From IMG/VR virus record IMGVR_UViG_3300021185_002716, positions 1 through 56,075 of that record: a DNA stretch of 56,075 nucleotides; one strand, 5' to 3'. The stretch is from a virus. Taxonomy: Duplodnaviria; Caudoviricetes. This document shows, piece by piece, positions 28,315 through 35,664 of the stretch; position 1 is the first letter of the stretch, and each line of letters opens with the position of its first letter. Under the pieces are notes generated by a model, which ran no database searches, was not told the DNA's origin, and saw only the letters and a list, made by a program, of their open reading frames with translations. The position numbers and the translations under genes were made by a program.

Positions 28315-28466
28315 ATTTTATATGTCTTTTTTAGTGCAGTCCTTATTAGTTCGGACACATTCATGTGTTGATTAACACACTCATTGTGCATGTTTTCGAC
28401 CTCTCCTTGAGTAAGTCTGAACGTGATTCTGTTTGATTTTTTTTCTGTGTTTACCCCTCTATCCAT
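28311..28466 (-). CDS. 51-aa ribbon-helix-helix protein (not in ORF track)
   Basis: MDRGVNTEKKSNRITFRLTQGEVENMHNECVNQHMNVSELIRTALKKTYKI*; strand-helix-helix pattern; ATGA overlap with yqaJ. Confidence 0.7.
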   Translation of the reverse strand: MDRGVNTEKKSNRITFRLTQGEVENMHNECVNQHMNVSELIRTALKKTYKI

Positions 28467-28478
28467 CTCGAATAATTT

Positions 28479-28558
28479 AAAAAAAGGAGGGTGGTATTAA
28501 GTGGCTAGGGACAACCCGCCACCAACACTATTCCTTGTTGTTGGTTTAACCCTCCTTT
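28479..28558 (-). terminator. branched stem followed by U-tract (terminator/attenuator-like)
   Basis: Minus-strand AAAGGAGGGU/ACCCUCCUUU closing stem, two internal hairpins, then a U run. Confidence 0.6.
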
Positions 28559-28563
28559 AAGTT

Positions 28564-29100
28564 TTACTTACTGGCTTGCTTTACTGCTTTTTTGGATTTT
28601 TCTGCGTTGATTAAGGACTTAAGATTTTTTAACTGTTCGCTAGTTAAAGTGCCCTTGTTAGCAGGTATCCTTTGTTCTACAACAGTGTAGTCTACAGGTA
28701 TGTGATTGACCATGCTTTCGTATACGGTCATGCTATCCTGTGCTTTAACTTGTTGTAATTCTTTCGCCTCGTCCTCGTCCATGATAGTTTCCTCCCCACT
28801 ATCTACGATCCCTAAAATAAACAATGCTCTATTTAAGGCACCAGATTGACATTTTTGAAATGAAAATGGCTCACTTGTTTTTTTATGAGCGACACCATCA
28901 GCCACAGGATTTCTATCAGGATCATAAACGACCCCTCTCATAACGATAATACTATCGTTCATATCTATAATCTCTGTGTTTAAAGAATATCCTTCAACTC
29001 TGAAGAAGTCGTTGAAGTAATTAAGTCTTTCAACCCATGGCACAATTTCTATGCCTCTACCGATTGAAGTCTTCTTGAGTTTTCGTTTTAGTTTTCCCAT
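28564..29100 (-). CDS. putative single-strand annealing protein (Rad52/Sak-like)
   Basis: IVPWVERL..F...VADGVAH...KCQSGALNRALFILGI; adjacent to the YqaJ exonuclease. Confidence 0.6.
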   Translation of the reverse strand: MGKLKRKLKKTSIGRGIEIVPWVERLNYFNDFFRVEGYSLNTEIIDMNDSIIVMRGVVYDPDRNPVADGVAHKKTSEPFSFQKCQSGALNRALFILGIVDSGEETIMDEDEAKELQQVKAQDSMTVYESMVNHIPVDYTVVEQRIPANKGTLTSEQLKNLKSLINAEKSKKAVKQASK

Positions 29101-29317
29101 AATTTATCTGTTTAGTTAAATTGATTAAATAAAAATTTACTATATAATACTTCCTTGCGTGAAACAAGATTGACTCCCAATCAAATATCCAACCCTTAAT
29201 TCTTCGCTCCATACATATTTTTTCGTGGTGTCTGAGCATAAAAAGTTTGAAATCCCTAAGAGGAAACCTCTTACGATCATGAATAATCTCGCTATTATCG
29301 TAGTCAAATCTGACCAT
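29057..29317 (-). CDS. hypothetical protein
   Basis: 86-aa ORF; an overlapping 65-aa alternative frame exists. Confidence 0.4.
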   Translation of the reverse strand: MVRFDYDNSEIIHDRKRFPLRDFKLFMLRHHEKICMERRIKGWIFDWESILFHARKYYIVNFYLINLTKQINYGKTKTKTQEDFNR

Positions 29318-29404
29318 TTTGTAAGTGATATTTTCATGTCGTGGTTATTTGCCTCGAAGTTAAAAAGAATATTAACATATGAACGATTGTAGTGTTAAAA
29401 TGTG

Positions 29405-30367
29405 TTAACTATTTATTAACAATTTATTATTTGCCTCCTGCTTTCTCAAGGAATCTATGTCGCTATGTTTTACATATCTATAAAATGCTTCAGATCCATT
29501 CGCATGGCCTGATATCCTTCTCACCTCCATCTCACTTAAACCTTTAGATAAATGGTAGGTAATCCCACTGCTTCTAAGTTTGTGTGGTGTGATTAGGTCG
29601 TATAAAAAATGTTCCGATGCTTGAGGGTTCCCCTCATGATCATAATTGTAAACGGTTTTGATTTGCATAAACTCTGGATAGAATTTAAGCAGTCTCTTCA
29701 ATGCTCTTCTAAAAGATTTCATTGACCAAACATAAGTGCCATGTTTTGCTATGTAATTATTTACATCGTCTGGCAAATAGAATCTTGATAGAGATCCCAT
29801 TCCCTTTTTTGTAATGATCGTTACAATATTACCATCACTTGTTGCCTTAAAGTTTCCAAGATCTGATATTCTCATACAAGAATAAAGCATAAGTCTAGTG
29901 TAATACCAGACGTGCTCTAGTTCTTTTCCGGGACATGTATTGTGTATAAGATCAACCTGATCTGGGGACAAAGCAATTACCTCTGTCTGTACCTCTCTCA
30001 TTGACTGCAACTTAGGAAACAGATACCCATAGTATGATTCCGCTTTTTTAAGTGTAGCCCTTATGTTTTTAAGGTCTGACTTCCTTGTGTTCGGATGCTT
30101 GCATTCATCCATAAGGATATTCAAATATCCATTGACATTGTTTTGTAATTTTCGGGTGACGATCAACCGCTCCCTTCTATTGGCAACACCGTTTAGATCT
30201 AACTCTTCGATATTAAAATCATATGAGTGGTTTCTAAAAGATGTAAGTAATTTTCTATATGCCGATATAGTTAATTTAGAGAATCTCTTTCCGTAATTCA
30301 TTATCTCCCCGTTCTCCATTAGTTCGATAATGTTTTCTAAAAGTAATGTGAATTTATAATCCTTCAT
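29405..30367 (-). CDS. int: tyrosine recombinase / integrase
   Basis: Catalytic residues visible: MRISD (R), K, HKLR (HxxR), SGH, YRY (Y). Confidence 0.88.
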   Translation of the reverse strand: MKDYKFTLLLENIIELMENGEIMNYGKRFSKLTISAYRKLLTSFRNHSYDFNIEELDLNGVANRRERLIVTRKLQNNVNGYLNILMDECKHPNTRKSDLKNIRATLKKAESYYGYLFPKLQSMREVQTEVIALSPDQVDLIHNTCPGKELEHVWYYTRLMLYSCMRISDLGNFKATSDGNIVTIITKKGMGSLSRFYLPDDVNNYIAKHGTYVWSMKSFRRALKRLLKFYPEFMQIKTVYNYDHEGNPQASEHFLYDLITPHKLRSSGITYHLSKGLSEMEVRRISGHANGSEAFYRYVKHSDIDSLRKQEANNKLLINS

Positions 30368-30477
30368 AGAAGTATATTTATTTAGTTAAACAAAATCCGA
30401 TAGTTAATAAGTAAAATTAGTTGTGATTGTAGTTGATTTCAGAATGTGCCCGTACTGACTGTACAGGCCGTTCTGTC

Positions 30478-30499
30478 GTAGTCCCTAGGGGACTTGAAC
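30478..30499 (-). other. candidate attP core: 3' end of a tRNA (Glu-like)
   Basis: Minus strand GTTCAAGTCCCCT-AGGGACT-AC reads as T-loop, 3' T-stem, acceptor strand and discriminator, with no 5' half; 110 bp upstream of int. Confidence 0.6.
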
Positions 30500-30505
30500 A
30501 ATCGT

Positions 30506-30763
30506 TCAATCGTTAATAACTTTATCTATCCTTTCGGACAGGCCTCCATAGTACTCTATGATCCTGCACGACTCCTCGAATCGTAGTGGTGATAAGCCTG
30601 TTTTCTTTTGATTTAACGTGCTCTTTTTAGACTTCGAGCCGTATATATATTCACATACCTGTGTAGTTGGTATGTCCTCTAATTGAAGCAACTTATGTGC
30701 TTTTTCTTTGAGAGATATGTGAGAGGAGAGTCCTCTTCTTTTAGTTTTCATTCTAGTTATCAT
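30506..30763 (-). CDS. small HTH (XRE/Cro-like) protein
   Basis: IPTTQVCEYIYG...STLNQKKTG...LRFEE pattern. Confidence 0.55.
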   Translation of the reverse strand: MITRMKTKRRGLSSHISLKEKAHKLLQLEDIPTTQVCEYIYGSKSKKSTLNQKKTGLSPLRFEESCRIIEYYGGLSERIDKVIND

Positions 30764-30787
30764 TAGTTATTATCATTAAAAATAGTA

Positions 30788-31324
30788 TTATTTTGTCTTA
30801 TTTACAAGTATCTTCTTTAAAGTTCTGTTTAACCGGTAAGAACAGTTGCGATCATTCATAACACCCCTTAAAACAGAATTTTCTATTCCCAAAAAGTTTT
30901 CACGGATTAAGTCCCATGAGTTCATCTCAATGTTACTAAGTAGTTCGTCATATTTTTTAGTCATATCGTTCAAAAGTCCCTTTAATTCAACAACATCTAT
31001 AATATTAACATCACCTAATTTACCCTTACCTAGATCCGTGTCTGTTATAATCTTCAGACAAGTTGAGTAGTTTCTCCTAAATTCTTTGTCTGCTTCAGCG
31101 AGCGAAATGGCTTGCTTACAGGCATACATTATTGTGGCGTGATCTCTTTTCAACACCTTTCCAATTCTATTGTAGGGTGCACCTAAAAAATCTCTAGTTA
31201 ACTTACACAGTATAAAGCGAGCGTCTACATTATCACGAGTCCTGTCCCCGGAAAAAGGATTTGCTCCAGTTACTCTGTTGACGACATCGCCTATAAATTT
31301 CATATCTTCTTTTAGTCTACTCAT
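30788..31324 (-). CDS. DnaA C-terminal (domain IV)-like DNA-binding protein
   Basis: RTRDNVDARFIL.KLTRD...YNRIGKVLKRDHATIMYACK matches the DnaA domain IV RDHxTV signature. Confidence 0.8.
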   Translation of the reverse strand: MSRLKEDMKFIGDVVNRVTGANPFSGDRTRDNVDARFILCKLTRDFLGAPYNRIGKVLKRDHATIMYACKQAISLAEADKEFRRNYSTCLKIITDTDLGKGKLGDVNIIDVVELKGLLNDMTKKYDELLSNIEMNSWDLIRENFLGIENSVLRGVMNDRNCSYRLNRTLKKILVNKTK

Positions 31325-31393
31325 TGTTGTTTATTTTTTAAGCATAAATTCCCTGTCACATATATGTAACTAAAAAATTATATGTGGTTGATT

Positions 31394-31699
31394 TTAAACT
31401 GTTTGCAATACGCTTCTGCCTATCTCTCTTGATAAATTCCAGGAATCCGCCCAATATTTTTTTGATCTTTGCACTGACCCGTAACCGTTGGCCTTTACCT
31501 GATACCTTGATGGTACTGTGACAAAAATGTTTATTTTGATTGAGTGATAAGGCAAGTAACACGCCCCAGATTTAAGGGCTTCCTTACATGATTTAGTGAC
31601 GTTTCCGCCAATCTTCCACGCCTCTCCTGAATTGATAAGACTCTGCTGAATGTCGTATCCAAATTGCTTTTGCAACTCTTGAATTTTACGCTCGTTCAT
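31394..31699 (-). CDS. hypothetical phage protein
   Basis: 101-aa ORF, QSLINSGEAWK...LKSGACYLP...VPSRYQVK; A-rich leader. Confidence 0.65.
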   Translation of the reverse strand: MNERKIQELQKQFGYDIQQSLINSGEAWKIGGNVTKSCKEALKSGACYLPYHSIKINIFVTVPSRYQVKANGYGSVQRSKKYWADSWNLSREIGRSVLQTV

Positions 31700-31755
31700 A
31701 ATTATAGTTTTTTTTTGTAGTTATAATTAACGTCTGACATTGCTAAAATAACATT

Positions 31756-31938
31756 TTAGTCTGACATATCAAAAAATTTAACATCCGGATTTGAATTATC
31801 GTTCAACTCATTTGAATGAAAAATTATTTGTCTACCTCTGATGTTGTGAAAAATCTCTAGTATAAATTCCTCTCCCGCACCAGGATAAAGTCCCTTTAGG
31901 TTTGATATCAATTTGATATCCTTTTTATTTAAACTCAT
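31756..31938 (-). CDS. hypothetical protein
   Basis: 60-aa ORF with ATGA overlap. Confidence 0.5.
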   Translation of the reverse strand: MSLNKKDIKLISNLKGLYPGAGEEFILEIFHNIRGRQIIFHSNELNDNSNPDVKFFDMSD

Positions 31939-32318
31939 TGTTGGCTTCTTTTTAGATAATTTTTTGCTCTTCTTTCGTTCTCAAAATATATTTGATTTGA
32001 ATTTTGTCTGTAAAGTTCTTCGCTAACGTCATCCCATATTGAATACACTACCTCTCCGTCTTCAATAATCCAGTAGTCATCTCCCTCTTTAAATGGAAAA
32101 ACTATTCCCGCTCGCTCGTCTTTTATCCGCTTTACTCTTCCCATATATTTTTTAGTTTCGCTTATAAGTACCTGTACCTCCAGTAGTTGTTCACTGATAT
32201 CCTTTAGGTATTTTATTGATTGGTCAGGAGAATAATTATACTTCTTCGAGATCGTGTCGAGAATGTTCTTTTTAAGAAACTTTCCCATTTTTAAATTAGT
32301 AATTCCCATAAAACTCAT
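31935..32318 (-). CDS. hypothetical protein
   Basis: 127-aa ORF with A-rich leader. Confidence 0.6.
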   Translation of the reverse strand: MSFMGITNLKMGKFLKKNILDTISKKYNYSPDQSIKYLKDISEQLLEVQVLISETKKYMGRVKRIKDERAGIVFPFKEGDDYWIIEDGEVVYSIWDDVSEELYRQNSNQIYFENERRAKNYLKRSQQ

Positions 32319-32330
32319 ATTGTTTGTTTT

Positions 32331-32912
32331 TTAAGTTAGTGATCTTTTTAGTTCATCCCTTAACATTCCGTATTCAACCTCTAGCCACTCAACAAATTGC
32401 TTTTCTTCTCTTTTCGGTATTGCTATGGTTACCGATGATGAAAACACGTTAGTAGTTGGGCTTGAGATCACCGATACACGGACAGGACAATGGACGTGTC
32501 CATTCATAATTTCTTCTACAAGATCATTCAAGTCATGCTTCCACGGGACATCACTCCAGTAGTCCGTACCCCATCCCGACTCTATCTCCTTCCAACCATT
32601 GGACAGATCTATTTCATAGTATCCTCTCCATGCATTTGAAGATTTCCAAACCACATCATCTATTGACAAATGCTCATGATCATCCTCTCCCCAGATTTCT
32701 TCATGGTAATCGTTGAATGCCATACCTAGTCCAGGAACAAAAAAGAATTTCTTACTTTCCTCGTCTTGGGGTGACCAAGTTAGTATCTGTGTTGCACTCT
32801 CCCACATAGAATGGTAGCAGTGTTCACATATTTGGTTACCATCCTTATCAAAGGAGTGCCAATCATCTTGGTCATAAGTCTCCTCGCACGAAGTACATTT
32901 AAATTTATCCAT
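32331..32912 (-). CDS. acidic early protein with N-terminal Zn ribbon
   Basis: CTSC...CEHC; starts 30 nt after the hammerhead 1 cut site. Confidence 0.7.
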   Translation of the reverse strand: MDKFKCTSCEETYDQDDWHSFDKDGNQICEHCYHSMWESATQILTWSPQDEESKKFFFVPGLGMAFNDYHEEIWGEDDHEHLSIDDVVWKSSNAWRGYYEIDLSNGWKEIESGWGTDYWSDVPWKHDLNDLVEEIMNGHVHCPVRVSVISSPTTNVFSSSVTIAIPKREEKQFVEWLEVEYGMLRDELKRSLT

Positions 32913-32937
32913 TTTGTTTTAGTTTAAATTATTATTT

Positions 32938-33019
32938 ACAAAGACGGAGGGCTGAAAATCATGCTCGTTCAAAACATATCCCTCCGTTTCGCCTGAATCT
33001 CACAGGCTCATCAGTTTGC
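32938..33019 (-). ncRNA. type I hammerhead ribozyme HHR1
   Basis: GCAAA-CUGAUGA-GCCUG(UGAGAUU)CAGGC-GAAA-CGGAGGG(large loop)CCCUCCG-UC^UUUGU; all three stems pair; predicted cut 32943/32942. Confidence 0.9.
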
Positions 33020-33199
33020 TTATTTTTTAAAAAAGTATTTATCTTCCTTATCTATTACTTCGACTCCAATGATCTTTGATGTGCCATGATCTTTGTTTGC
33101 CTTATTCAAATAGTTGTTGAGGTGTCTATCGTCATTAAAGTCTCTCACATAAGAGCGATAGTTTCCTGACCAGTTTTTAATATCTATTCTAACCTTCAT
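33020..33199 (-). CDS. 59-aa hypothetical protein (not in ORF track)
   Basis: MKVRIDIKNWSGNYRSYVRDFNDDRHLNNYLNKANKDHGTSKIIGVEVIDKEDKYFFKK*; its stop abuts HHR1. Confidence 0.65.
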   Translation of the reverse strand: MKVRIDIKNWSGNYRSYVRDFNDDRHLNNYLNKANKDHGTSKIIGVEVIDKEDKYFFKK

Positions 33200-33211
33200 C
33201 GTTAACTTTAT

Positions 33212-33565
33212 TTAAGTTTTAATTATATCTGTTATTAATTCACACACCACATAGTAAGATGCTTTTATGCTTTGAGCATCAAACTCTTGATAAAGAATGT
33301 CATTACCTTTTACTATTAGTGACTGCCAATCTTTATCTATTGGTTGATAGTTTTTCTCGAAAGTATATCCAAGAGTTTCTATCTTTTCTATTACTGGCAT
33401 CAGCCAATCCCAAGATTTGTGAAATTGCATTGGTGCAATCGTACCATCATTGTATTTAGGTGAGTAGCATTTGTTATGATTTACCTCGTACCCCATAAAT
33501 TCTGCTATAAGTCTATTACTCCTACCTTCCATATTAATTGTTTTAGTTTTCATATTAGTATGCAC
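33212..33565 (-). CDS. hypothetical phage protein (NRLIAEFMG...FHKSWDWLMPVIEKIE family)
   Basis: Recurring phage motif recognised by eye; function unknown. Confidence 0.7.
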   Translation of the reverse strand: MHTNMKTKTINMEGRSNRLIAEFMGYEVNHNKCYSPKYNDGTIAPMQFHKSWDWLMPVIEKIETLGYTFEKNYQPIDKDWQSLIVKGNDILYQEFDAQSIKASYYVVCELITDIIKT

Positions 33566-33851
33566 TTACAGGTTTTAATTGATTTTGTTCAAACGTCTCC
33601 CATTCCCATTCGTCATCGTGAACAGTTAGACTGTGGAAATACTTCTGTAGGTTTTCAGCAATGTATTCAAGTTCATCACTTTCTCTCCAATCTTTAATGG
33701 TGCAGTCACCATCTATTCTGCCGAGCATTCCTCCACCCAAATAGTTTTGGTATGCCGTCATCTTTTCTCCAAAATACCCAAAGTTGTCAAGGGCAATCTC
33801 TATTCCTCCACCTCGGTAGGAAATCTCTTGTCTGATGATATTAAATTTCAT
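33555..33851 (-). CDS. hypothetical early protein
   Basis: 98 aa; starts 27 nt after the HHR2 cut site. Confidence 0.7.
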   Translation of the reverse strand: MKFNIIRQEISYRGGGIEIALDNFGYFGEKMTAYQNYLGGGMLGRIDGDCTIKDWRESDELEYIAENLQKYFHSLTVHDDEWEWETFEQNQLKPVSAY

Positions 33852-33873
33852 TTTGTTTTAGTTTAAATTATTT

Positions 33874-33931
33874 AACCTGACTCGATCCGGAGACCGAGTT
33901 TCGCCTGAATCTCACAGGCTCATCAGAGGTT
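33874..33931 (-). ncRNA. type I hammerhead ribozyme HHR2
   Basis: AACCU-CUGAUGA-GCCUG(UGAGAUU)CAGGC-GAAA-CUCGGUC(UCCG)GAUCGAG-UC^AGGUU; predicted cut 33879/33878. Confidence 0.95.
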
Positions 33932-34390
33932 TTATTTTTCTACAAAGTCAAACTTCTGGCGGAGGTTACCCTCGTGGATTGCAGTAGGAAATAGTTCTTG
34001 CATAAGTTCTAATTCTTCACCATACAGGAATCTGTCTCCATCTTTTTTCAATCTCTCCTCCATTTCCTTCCCGATCCAAGAGTCTTGTAGAAGTACTCTG
34101 TAAACATCTTTGCTTATGTCTTTCCAACCCCTCTCTTTATCCCAAAGAGTATCGTCTGCGTAGTCACCATCTATTGTGATATTATCACCCGACCATCGTC
34201 CGATGATCTCAGACTCCGAAGGATGGTCTCCACCTCCACGACCATTGCCGTTTGCTAGAAGTAAAGAGAGACCTTGTAGCATGCCTCTACCATCAGATGT
34301 AAATTCCATTAACTTCATACCATTCCCAAACGTGTGTGGGCTTAGGTATTCCTTTTTAGTTTTGTTGAACACTTTATAGTATTGTCCCAT
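33932..34390 (-). CDS. hypothetical early protein (MGQYY...GRWxGD family)
   Basis: 152 aa; flanked by HHR3 and HHR2. Confidence 0.75.
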   Translation of the reverse strand: MGQYYKVFNKTKKEYLSPHTFGNGMKLMEFTSDGRGMLQGLSLLLANGNGRGGGDHPSESEIIGRWSGDNITIDGDYADDTLWDKERGWKDISKDVYRVLLQDSWIGKEMEERLKKDGDRFLYGEELELMQELFPTAIHEGNLRQKFDFVEK

Positions 34391-34413
34391 GACTTTAGTT
34401 TTAATTATTATTT

Positions 34414-34477
34414 AACCTGACTCGGTCTGTATCTATTGACCGAGTTTCGTCCCATCACAGGGTACTCATCAGAGGTT
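34414..34477 (-). ncRNA. type I hammerhead ribozyme HHR3
   Basis: AACCU-CUGAUGA-GU(A)CCC(UGUGAU)GGGAC-GAAA-CUCGGUC(10 nt)GACCGAG-UC^AGGUU; predicted cut 34419/34418. Confidence 0.92.
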
Positions 34478-34981
34478 TTACTTGATTTCTGTAAAGTGAT
34501 TAATAAGCATATTCAAGCCCGAAACAATGCCTTTGTGTTCTGACATAGTGTGTGAATCGTTTACCCATTCATCATCTGAAACAATATCTATCATTACATT
34601 TTTGATATCCTGAATTGAGTAAGTCTTCTCCGAGTTATTGATAAGAGTTTTGTAGAAGTCGTACACCTCTATTACCTTGCTCATTGTTTGGTCGAAGAAT
34701 GATAATTGGTGGGGGGTGACCTTGTCCTTGTACTTATCCATAAAGACCCTTAGATACTCTACATCTAAATAAACTCCTTCAGGAAGATGACCATCGAGTA
34801 AATCATAAAGACCTCCCTCAATTCTAGTGATGGTATTATCCCAGTCATTAATTGGAATAACTTTACGAAAGGAATACTCTATACCTGAAACGTCTTTGAT
34901 TAAGCCCTTAATATGTGTTAGATGTATAGGGTCTTTTACTTTTGATGTTGGGACTTTTGGTTGTGGTTTTGTAGTTGTCAT
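34478..34981 (-). CDS. hypothetical early protein
   Basis: 167 aa; flanked by HHR4 and HHR3. Confidence 0.7.
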   Translation of the reverse strand: MTTTKPQPKVPTSKVKDPIHLTHIKGLIKDVSGIEYSFRKVIPINDWDNTITRIEGGLYDLLDGHLPEGVYLDVEYLRVFMDKYKDKVTPHQLSFFDQTMSKVIEVYDFYKTLINNSEKTYSIQDIKNVMIDIVSDDEWVNDSHTMSEHKGIVSGLNMLINHFTEIK

Positions 34982-35005
34982 GATTTTCAGTTTAAATTAT
35001 TATTT

Positions 35006-35057
35006 GACATTGACGCTCCGAAGAGCGTTTCGACCATTAAGGTCTCGTCAGAATGTC
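35006..35057 (-). ncRNA. type I hammerhead ribozyme HHR4
   Basis: GACAUU-CUGACGA-GACC(UUAAU)GGUC-GAAA-CGCUC(UUCG)GAGCG-UC^AAUGUC; predicted cut 35012/35011. Confidence 0.95.
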
Positions 35058-35068
35058 TTTAGTCTCCC

Positions 35069-35386
35069 TTATCTCATGCCCAATTGTGATCTTTGCTCCC
35101 TTTCAAAGTCAGCATCTGTGTTTGCACTGTCAATTTGTGATCTTGTAGTTGTCGTAATTTCTGTTAACTTGGTAACCTCCGTAATCCCGTCAGTCATTGA
35201 TAGACTAAAACCTGCCCGGGTCAAGTTATTGATGACACTAGCACAGCAATCTATTATTCCAATCTTAAATTCCGATGATCCAAGCCCTCCCACGAAGTTA
35301 TCTTTTGGCTTGTTGATGATGATTTTTGTTGAGTGATTTTTTGATATGATCTCAATCGCTTGTAAAAAAGTCTCTAATTTTCTCAT
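35069..35386 (-). CDS. hypothetical protein, first gene of the early operon
   Basis: 105 aa; same AAUUUAAACU.GAAAAUC-AUG leader type as the downstream genes. Confidence 0.65.
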   Translation of the reverse strand: MRKLETFLQAIEIISKNHSTKIIINKPKDNFVGGLGSSEFKIGIIDCCASVINNLTRAGFSLSMTDGITEVTKLTEITTTTRSQIDSANTDADFEREQRSQLGMR

Positions 35387-35427
35387 GATTTTCTAGTTTA
35401 AATTAATATTTGTTTTGAACGATGGTA

Positions 35428-35435
35428 CAAATATA
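35428..35435 (-). promoter_or_regulatory. Bacteroidota primary-sigma -7 element (TAnnTTTG)
   Basis: TATATTTG on the minus strand ~42 nt upstream of the 35386 start; no clean -33 TTG found. Confidence 0.65.
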
Positions 35436-35592
35436 AAACAAAAAATCAATACGTCCGACACGGCTAACTAAAATAAATCGTCTCAACAGATCTAAAATAC
35501 ATGAAATTTTTTTTTGGGGGGTAATGAACAAACGTACAAATTAGGGGGTGTTCAACTCCCGTTTACTATAGTTGGCGGGATATCGAAACTTG

Positions 35593-35664
35593 TACCTTCG
35601 GAAGGAATCGAACCTTCATCACTGGTTTAGAAGACCAGGGTTTTATCCGTTAAACTACGAAGGC
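35593..35664 (-). tRNA. tRNA-Arg(UCU), CCA not encoded
   Basis: Acceptor GCCTTCG/CGAAGGT, anticodon arm CTGGT-CT TCT AA-ACCAG, T arm GAAGG TTCGATT CCTTC. Confidence 0.93.

Follow-up and report, generated by a model that had tools for sequence, protein, structure and literature searches.

The window analysed here is the whole 56,075-base stretch of the IMG/VR virus record IMGVR_UViG_3300021185_002716, a linear record that is ~88% complete by estimate. On its minus strand, at 32.9-35.1 kb, it carries a run of small genes interrupted by four predicted self-cleaving hammerhead ribozymes of type I, each of which would cut the RNA 27-30 nucleotides (nt) before a start codon. According to the account that we favor, and to which we give a probability of roughly 60%, one early RNA is cut by these hammerheads into messages with standard leaders. 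Arrays of this type were already known, and the analysis adds two modest points: a contrast in length between the leaders of viral hammerheads with and without a Shine-Dalgarno word, and the match of the latter to the length of host 5' untranslated regions (UTRs).

Anatomy of the hammerheads and their leaders

The four hammerheads and the leaders that their predicted cuts would leave are as follows.

35012..35057, minus strand: hammerhead 1 (HH1), type I; stem I 5' strand GACAUU, core CUGACGAG, stem II, CGAAAC, stem III, GUC
34982..35011, minus strand: gene 2 leader, 30 nt; stem I 3' strand AAUGUC plus 24 nt
34419..34477, minus strand: HH2, type I; bulged A in stem II; abuts the gene 2 stop codon
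34391..34418, minus strand: gene 3 leader, 28 nt, counted from the predicted cut
33879..33931, minus strand: HH3, type I; abuts the gene 3 stop codon
33852..33878, minus strand: gene 4 leader, 27 nt, counted from the predicted cut
32943..33019, minus strand: HH4, type I; long stem III; abuts the gene 6 stop codon
32913..32942, minus strand: gene 7 leader, 30 nt, counted from the predicted cut

The pattern CTGAYGAG-N5-30-CGAAAC occurs four times in the window, each time on the minus strand of the array, while shuffles lead one to expect 0.02 occurrences. Read directly along the strand, every copy presents in the same order the 5' strand of stem I, CUGA(U/C)GAG, a closed stem II, CGAAAC, a closed stem III, GUC and the 3' strand of stem I. 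An open stem I, with loops closing stems II and III, is the type I topology. All four copies thus have stems I, II and III together with the GUC cleavage triplet, and they are packed into 2.1 kb of one strand in a phage-type genome, as in the arrays described by Perreault et al. (2011).

The same array is found in related viral records, G001 (four hammerheads), G002 (three) and G003 (three), a further record, G004, being a near-repeat of G003. Taking the window, G001, G002 and G003 together gives 14 family copies from four diverged phages, and the core CUGA(U/C)GAG...CGAAAC...GUC is kept in 14/14. Stem lengths are 4-6 bp for stem I, 4-5 bp for stem II (with the bulge in HH2) and 6-9 bp for stem III, where position 1 is A-U and position 2 is C-G in all 14 copies; the GUC site is likewise present in 14/14. 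Compensatory pair changes are seen in each of the three stems (position 2 of stem I is UA, AU, CG or GU, and position 4 of stem II is CG in seven copies and UA in seven), in a register that we counted outward from the core rather than took from a curated alignment. An orthologue of HH4 precedes the same gene, gene 7, in all four related records. The ribozymes look genuine, and self-cleavage is predicted. No other ribozyme family was found in an Rfam scan of the whole window at E <= 1, the remaining rows of which are one tRNA and a weak match to a small nucleolar RNA (snoRNA) model at 49.9 kb.

Counted by eye and by script, the cuts after C17 fall at 35012, 34419, 33879 and 32943 on the minus strand. 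The 3' products begin at 35011, 34418, 33878 and 32942, and the downstream AUGs lie at 34981, 34390, 33851 and 32912. An earlier note on this DNA had given cut-to-AUG distances of 30, 28, 27 and 30 nt, and an exact recount agrees; the span marked in that note, 32910-35011, starts on the final base of the gene 7 AUG and extends to where the first 3' product begins. On the upstream side, stem I begins 0 nt past the stop codon at three of the four junctions in the window and 11 nt past it at the fourth, that of HH1.

The leaders of the window are 51-59% A and 10-19% G+C, and have in common the words AAAUAAU(AAU)UU(U/A)AAACU(A/G)AAA. The consensus proposed earlier, AAAUAAU(AAU), is followed, leader 2 reading UUAAAACUAAAGUC and leader 3 being short of one AAU. 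The absence of a Shine-Dalgarno sequence, also proposed earlier, holds throughout the family, since there is no G between -22 and -8 in any of the 14 leaders. A is found at -12 in 14/14, at -11 in 13/14, at -6 in 12/14 and at -3 in 11/14. According to work on Bacteroidetes, their mRNAs are enriched in A at -3, -6 and -11 to -15, with a median 5' UTR length of 24 nt in Flavobacterium psychrophilum and, in Bacteroides thetaiotaomicron, a median of 32 nt and a mode of 23 nt (PMC7366714, PMC9723704). The family leaders match this published enrichment, which bears out the idea that they are of the A-rich Bacteroidota type. Judging from the sequence, the ribozyme would cut just where an ordinary initiation leader of host type begins, because both the length and the A positions match Bacteroidota 5' UTRs. 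The likeness to the primary 5' UTRs of Bacteroidota (Ryan et al. 2020; Guerin et al. 2021) extends to length class, absence of a Shine-Dalgarno sequence and A enrichment. The ends themselves would differ, however: those of primary 5' UTRs are described as arising by initiation and bearing a triphosphate, whereas hammerhead-made ends would arise by cleavage and bear a 5'-hydroxyl (5'-OH).

Cut-to-start spacing in relatives and in other viral hammerheads

The earlier note had suggested comparing the spacing across homologous cassettes, and variability proves to be low. The cut-to-start distances are 30/28/27/27 nt in G001, 28/27/27 nt in G002 and 29/27/26 nt in G003 (two of these starts being GUG), which gives a range of 26-30 nt at the 14 junctions. 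The gene 7 leaders differ by substitutions, insertions and deletions among the four phages, yet they measure 30, 27, 27 and 26 nt.

Genes 7-9, behind HH4, are 47-92% identical at the amino acid level in all four related records, and the cassettes between ribozymes differ. Gene 5 of the window is missing from G001, which has an extra open reading frame (ORF) of 90 amino acids; in G002 and G003 the first hammerhead is followed by a membrane-like protein of 46 residues that starts with GUG; and a 122-residue protein of G003 matches gene 2 of the window only over its C-terminal 45 residues. Because of this mosaicism of the early region, the ribozyme-plus-leader units may double as recombination junctions.

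Two further observations concern the cassettes and their junctions. At the third hammerhead of G002 and G003 (L261:1426-1534 and L267:1496-1605) there is no stop codon ahead of stem I; the upstream ORF seems to continue into the ribozyme, where a UGA inside CUGAUGAG may terminate it. Separately, HH2 and HH3 (33879-34477, minus strand) have an identical stem I, AACCU/AGGUU, as do their counterparts in G001. With the same stem I on both sides, an excised gene 3 RNA would open with a strand able to pair with the ribozyme that forms its 3' end, a matching-end geometry that allows circularisation in viroid-like RNAs. The G002 cassette between the second and third hammerheads has matching ends too. 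Such matches may be due to chance, there being only three stem I types in the family. Perreault et al. sought circular or spliced array products and, by the account in their article text, found none (PMC3088659).

To look beyond this family, we used two pattern scans of viral contigs, which returned at least 123 and at least 119 stretches and from which 242 loci were used. These listed loci hold 72 distinct type I hammerheads, six of which have no ORF start within 250 nt. Among the matches listed, the cut lies 20-30 nt before the start in 14 of the 24 leaders without a Shine-Dalgarno word and in 10 of the 42 leaders with one, while of 1520 positions drawn at random from these loci, only 3.5% are followed by such a start at that distance. 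In several of the long outliers without a Shine-Dalgarno word, a short ORF has its ATG at 22-24 nt. When the comparison is confined to distances of 10-90 nt, the median is 24 nt without a Shine-Dalgarno word (n = 16, standard deviation 5.4) and 34 nt with one (n = 36, standard deviation 15.0); the difference in length has a Mann-Whitney p of 6.6e-5, and Levene's test gives p = 0.052. How the survey was made argues for caution with these figures, as the start was taken to be the first ATG opening at least 50 codons, the Shine-Dalgarno class was assigned from a motif in the leader, exact duplicates alone were removed and the loci are without identified hosts. Nevertheless, a spacing of 20-30 nt appears to be general among phage hammerheads rather than peculiar to this phage, because the relatives and the unrelated phage hammerheads support it independently. 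A literature search, confined to sources other than subscription journals and the supplement of PMC3088659, returned no cut-to-start spacing rule for phage hammerheads.

Some individual hammerheads from these searches deserve mention. The 29-nt core and stem II of HH3 and HH4, with the loop UGAGAUU, recur identically in 12 viral contig stretches (L005-L016), several of which have leaders of Shine-Dalgarno type and unrelated stems I and III. Where the leaders of such loci are of GGAG or AGGA type, the cut-to-start distances are 21, 34, 42 and 58 nt. Either strong constraint on this stem II and its loop, or their spread among phages that infect different hosts, would seem to account for this. 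As for cultured phages, the Flavobacterium phage vB_FspP_elemoF (NC_055853.1 16023-16101, minus strand) has a hammerhead-like element whose cut would lie 28 nt before the annotated start of gp67. Its stem II pairs poorly and its stem III has one A-A mismatch; gp66, a 35-residue ORF annotated over the element on the opposite strand, is probably spurious.

A probable single early transcript, and the competing explanations

A candidate promoter and a leader without a ribozyme precede the array.

35428..35435, minus strand: TATATTTG box preceding the operon; candidate -7 element for Bacteroidota sigma-A, whose consensus is TAnnTTTG
35387..35411, minus strand: gene 1 leader, AAAUAUUAAUUUAAACUAGAAAAUC followed by AUG; no ribozyme upstream; motif match at 35391-35402 with one mismatch

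The sigma-A -7 box of Bacteroidota, TAnnTTTG, is reported at -12 to -5 (PMC7366714, PMC9723704); a sigma-70 promoter scan is inapplicable to this type of host. Counted from the TATATTTG box, the predicted 5' UTR of gene 1 is ~37 nt long. The box and the bases that follow it are conserved in G002. Since TAnnTTTG is not enriched in the whole window (63 found, 68.5 expected), the promoter at TATATTTG is a prediction for which its position and the conservation in G002 speak. Gene 1, although it has no ribozyme, has the same type of leader as the ribozyme-led genes, and this is also the case in G002. Consensus scans found neither a TAnnTTTG box nor a terminator-like site on the minus strand within the array (32.9-35.1 kb), and the lack of an internal box fits a single transcript. 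Genes 5, 6 and 8 trail their neighbors by 1, 12 and 12 nt, without the leader motif. Four sets of contigs from RNA libraries contribute 16 pieces at 32300-35500, over parts of genes 1-6, with DNA carry-over possible. None of these contigs, which by their nature cannot show RNA ends, spans a whole ribozyme, and none contains a joint.

Taken together, we propose that the leftward early operon is most likely one RNA, made from a promoter near 35435, which the four type I hammerheads would cut as it is made into messages of one to three genes. Since the open stem is stem I, each upstream message would keep nearly the whole folded ribozyme at its end, which would bear a 2',3'-cyclic phosphate; such a folded end is a plausible shield against 3' exonucleases. 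Because of the type I topology, little of the ribozyme would remain downstream, where the message would begin with a 5'-OH, the 5-6 nt strand of stem I and an A-rich, G-free leader of 21-24 nt. This cut-made leader would be the same initiation leader that the phage uses after a promoter. In this way, cistrons would become separate mRNAs with their own lifetimes and their own initiation. Two causes may underlie the spacing: a tight packing of stop codon, ribozyme, leader and AUG, and a ribosome that, working independently of a Shine-Dalgarno sequence, would need some 20 or more open nt before the AUG. While the ribozymes, the cut sites, the leaders and their conservation can be read from the sequence, we infer co-transcription, cleavage in vivo and any effects on stability or translation.

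Several results weigh against this account, or against parts of it. The earlier note held that cleavage gives each gene an unstructured 5' end, and folding lends this no further support. No hairpin is predicted in the leaders, but they are no less structured than shuffled sequences (z from -0.47 to +0.94), and the mean unpaired probability from the leader to +15 changes little upon cleavage, being 0.56-0.73 in the products and 0.47-0.61 in precursors extended by 200 nt. In the product of HH3, the accessibility of the start region is even slightly below that of the precursor. Farther along this strand, genes are separated by plain gaps measuring 17-138 nt that contain no ribozyme, so internal initiation evidently needs no cut. 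As for stability, RNase E is described as being stimulated by a 5'-monophosphate, which makes stabilisation by a 5'-OH plausible; however, it is also said to enter RNA directly, regardless of the 5' end, so a 5'-OH need not stabilise. The modules of the window are, moreover, paralogues: HH2 and HH3 have a common stem I, stem III base and leader, while HH3 and HH4 are identical over the 29-nt core and stem II. The four similar spacings are consequently not independent observations, and their constancy is partly inherited.

This last point leads to an explanation that we regard as a minority possibility of some substance, namely that spacing and leader are due to inheritance rather than to selection, having been copied along with a duplicated ribozyme-leader junction where recombination exchanges early cassettes, much as it exchanges promoter/stem-loop cassettes in T4-type phages. 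Besides the shared parts of HH2, HH3 and HH4, the four related records conform to it in that the ribozymes and the distal genes 7-9 keep their places and the genes between ribozymes vary. It accounts less well for orthologous leaders that have diverged by substitutions, insertions and deletions and still measure 26-30 nt, and for unrelated hammerheads, with other stems and other leaders, that cluster at 20-28 nt among the matches listed. Inheritance explains the similarity in sequence and not the general rule, and it is compatible with the cutting of one early RNA into messages. The relatives also speak to the leader words themselves. If UUUAAACUAAAA before the AUG were an operator for a phage or host RNA-binding protein that times the early genes, much as the T4 translational repressor RegA binds A/U-rich start regions, one would understand why the motif stands at five consecutive independent starts of the early operon and is missing from the coupled genes 5, 6 and 8. 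We nonetheless find this quite improbable: the leaders of G002 and G003 depart from the motif, searches of the genes against Pfam and PHROG offer no candidate binding protein, and the 17-mer AAATAWTAATTWAAACT is found in at least 118 stretches of A/T-rich viral contigs, with two of its 119 listed occurrences behind a hammerhead. Being so common in A/T-rich contigs, AAATAWTAATTWAAACT carries little information. It was also tried, and dropped, as a marker of relatives, both of its hammerhead-linked occurrences among the matches listed being in G001.

The Rfam scores of the hammerheads lie below the gathering cut-offs (HH1, 21.9 against 34 for Hammerhead_1, RF00163; HH2, 26.3 against 48.5 for Hammerhead_3, RF00008; best score for RF03152, 24.6 against 56.3), as might be expected of inactive relics or of structural 3'-end hairpins that do not cleave; the Rfam type III and RAGATH-1 alignments fit them only in part. 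In our reading of the low scores, the models are limited where phage forms with such short stems are concerned, because the core, the stems, the cleavage triplet and the topology are those of a hammerhead. With an invariant core and three covarying stems over 14 copies in four diverged phages, and with similar phage arrays reported to cleave in vitro and in Escherichia coli (PMC3088659), the chance that these are relics appears very small. Slighter still, in our estimate, is the chance that part of the leader pairs with loop II in a stem I/stem II pseudoknot, so that ribozyme folding sets the spacing. About 40% of hammerheads are reported to use such a pseudoknot (PMC3088659), and here AGAUU of loop II could form pairs with the AAUUU of leaders 3 and 4, with a seemingly compensatory copy in G003. 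Yet AAUU lies anywhere from 1 to 9 nt after stem I among copies with an identical loop, and over 84 hammerheads the best complementarity of loop II to the 3' tail is 3.35, against 3.26 +/- 0.07 when permuted. Pairing of loop II with the 5' side was judged to give no signal either (3.61 against 3.44 +/- 0.07 over the same number of hammerheads). Another candidate was an end-to-end clamp, in which the leader of a cassette pairs with the bases before the next hammerhead; its duplex z values of +1.48, -0.66 and +1.87 are no better than those of shuffles, and it was rejected.

Host, genomic context and known systems

As for the host, the large terminase has relatives in 129 phage records, all at ~31% identity, and among these records 68 are named for Flavobacterium, 15 for Cellulophaga, two for Tenacibaculum and one for Maribacter. 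The primase has a single genomic relative, in a Ferruginibacter metagenome-assembled genome (33% identity). Setting aside runs that may be the source, at least 95% of the sampled words of the window are present in five marine or seawater metagenome studies. A host among the Bacteroidota that makes no use of Shine-Dalgarno sequences is thus well supported, if short of proof, and we take the window to be from a marine phage with a host of Flavobacteriia type. The 3.4-kb region has no DNA similarity to isolated phages, and HH4 with its leader has none of note.

The genes of the array are the following.

35069..35386, minus strand: gene 1, 105 amino acids, no family
34478..34981, minus strand: gene 2, 167 amino acids, no family
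33932..34390, minus strand: gene 3, 152 amino acids, no family
33020..33851, minus strand: genes 4, 5 and 6, of 98, 113 and 59 amino acids; gaps of 1 and 12 nt, without ribozyme or leader motif
32331..32912, minus strand: gene 7, 193 amino acids, with CxxC pairs; 47-90% conserved in G001, G002 and G003

Pfam and PHROG searches of genes 1-9 returned zero matches. Further down the minus strand lie genes for a DnaA-type helix-turn-helix protein, an integrase-like protein, a RecE-like exonuclease and a primase/helicase. At 28466-31756 (minus strand), the next genes of that strand are separated by plain gaps of 24-138 nt in which there is neither a ribozyme nor any Rfam match, nor a TAnnTTTG box on the strand of the genes. 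A tRNA-Arg(UCU) gene is located at 35592-35664, just upstream of the early promoter region and on the same strand as the operon.

Clustered hammerheads that flank single genes or small gene blocks in phages and prophages were described by Perreault et al. (2011), who proposed that they process long phage transcripts; three arrays were cut in vitro and one in E. coli (PMC3088659). The present array is like these in having several close hammerheads between same-strand phage genes of changing identity. It differs in its host, since the arrays reported as tested came from Clostridium, Azorhizobium and Agrobacterium rather than from Bacteroidota-type phages. Their text, the supplement aside, gives neither a cut-to-start spacing rule nor a contrast between leaders with and without a Shine-Dalgarno sequence, although it mentions a halovirus hammerhead that precedes a start codon by only 13 nt and close to which a 5' end was mapped (PMC3088659). 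According to a 2019 review, processing might yield transcripts of different stability or translation efficiency, the purpose being still undefined.

The earlier note likened the array to the synthetic insulator RiboJ, and the likeness is partial. RiboJ consists of a 75-nt sTRSV-derived ribozyme and a 23-nt hairpin (Clifton et al. 2018, PMC6206723). After its cut, the hairpin part is described as remaining on the downstream 5' end, where it is thought to stabilise the RNA and expose the ribosome binding site (PMC6206723). In the phage, too, upstream context would be removed and a defined 5' end created, but no ribozyme remnant with a hairpin would be left downstream, where only 5-6 nt of stem I and an open A-rich leader would remain. 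In addition, RiboJ sits between promoter and gene, whereas the phage hammerheads sit between genes and would leave the folded ribozyme on the upstream RNA. With these differences, the natural-insulator reading is a hypothesis that the anatomy makes reasonable.

A free 5' end some 20-30 nt before the AUG may do more than delimit a message. It is conceivable, although we hold it to be unlikely, that such an end itself enables ribosome loading in hosts that lack Shine-Dalgarno pairing, and that phages of Bacteroidota employ type I hammerheads to make 5' ends within a transcript. Translation of every uncoupled early gene would then resemble that of a promoter-proximal one, in what would be a bacterial counterpart of the ribozyme-dependent initiation of RNA viruses. 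Hints in that direction come from the survey, because the absence of a Shine-Dalgarno word goes with shorter, less scattered leaders, whose length matches the modal primary 5' UTR, and from the array, because a gene there is led by a ribozyme unless it is tightly coupled to its neighbor (gap of 1-12 nt). The nearest precedent is the ribozyme-dependent translation initiation reported in fungal and plant RNA viruses (Lopez-Galiano et al. 2026, PMC13725137). There, as here, type I hammerheads lie just upstream of ORFs; they are described as located in 5' UTRs, with cleavage linked to downstream translation. That system is eukaryotic and cap-independent and belongs to RNA genomes.

Returning to the cutting of one early RNA into separate messages, the case gives a clean example of such an array and a small regularity, in that the cut leaves a leader with the length of a host-typical 5' UTR. 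If active ribozymes affect expression, natural insulators would become a documented strategy and a source of parts for Bacteroidota genetics; if they have no effect, the layout would be a matter of simple genome packing.

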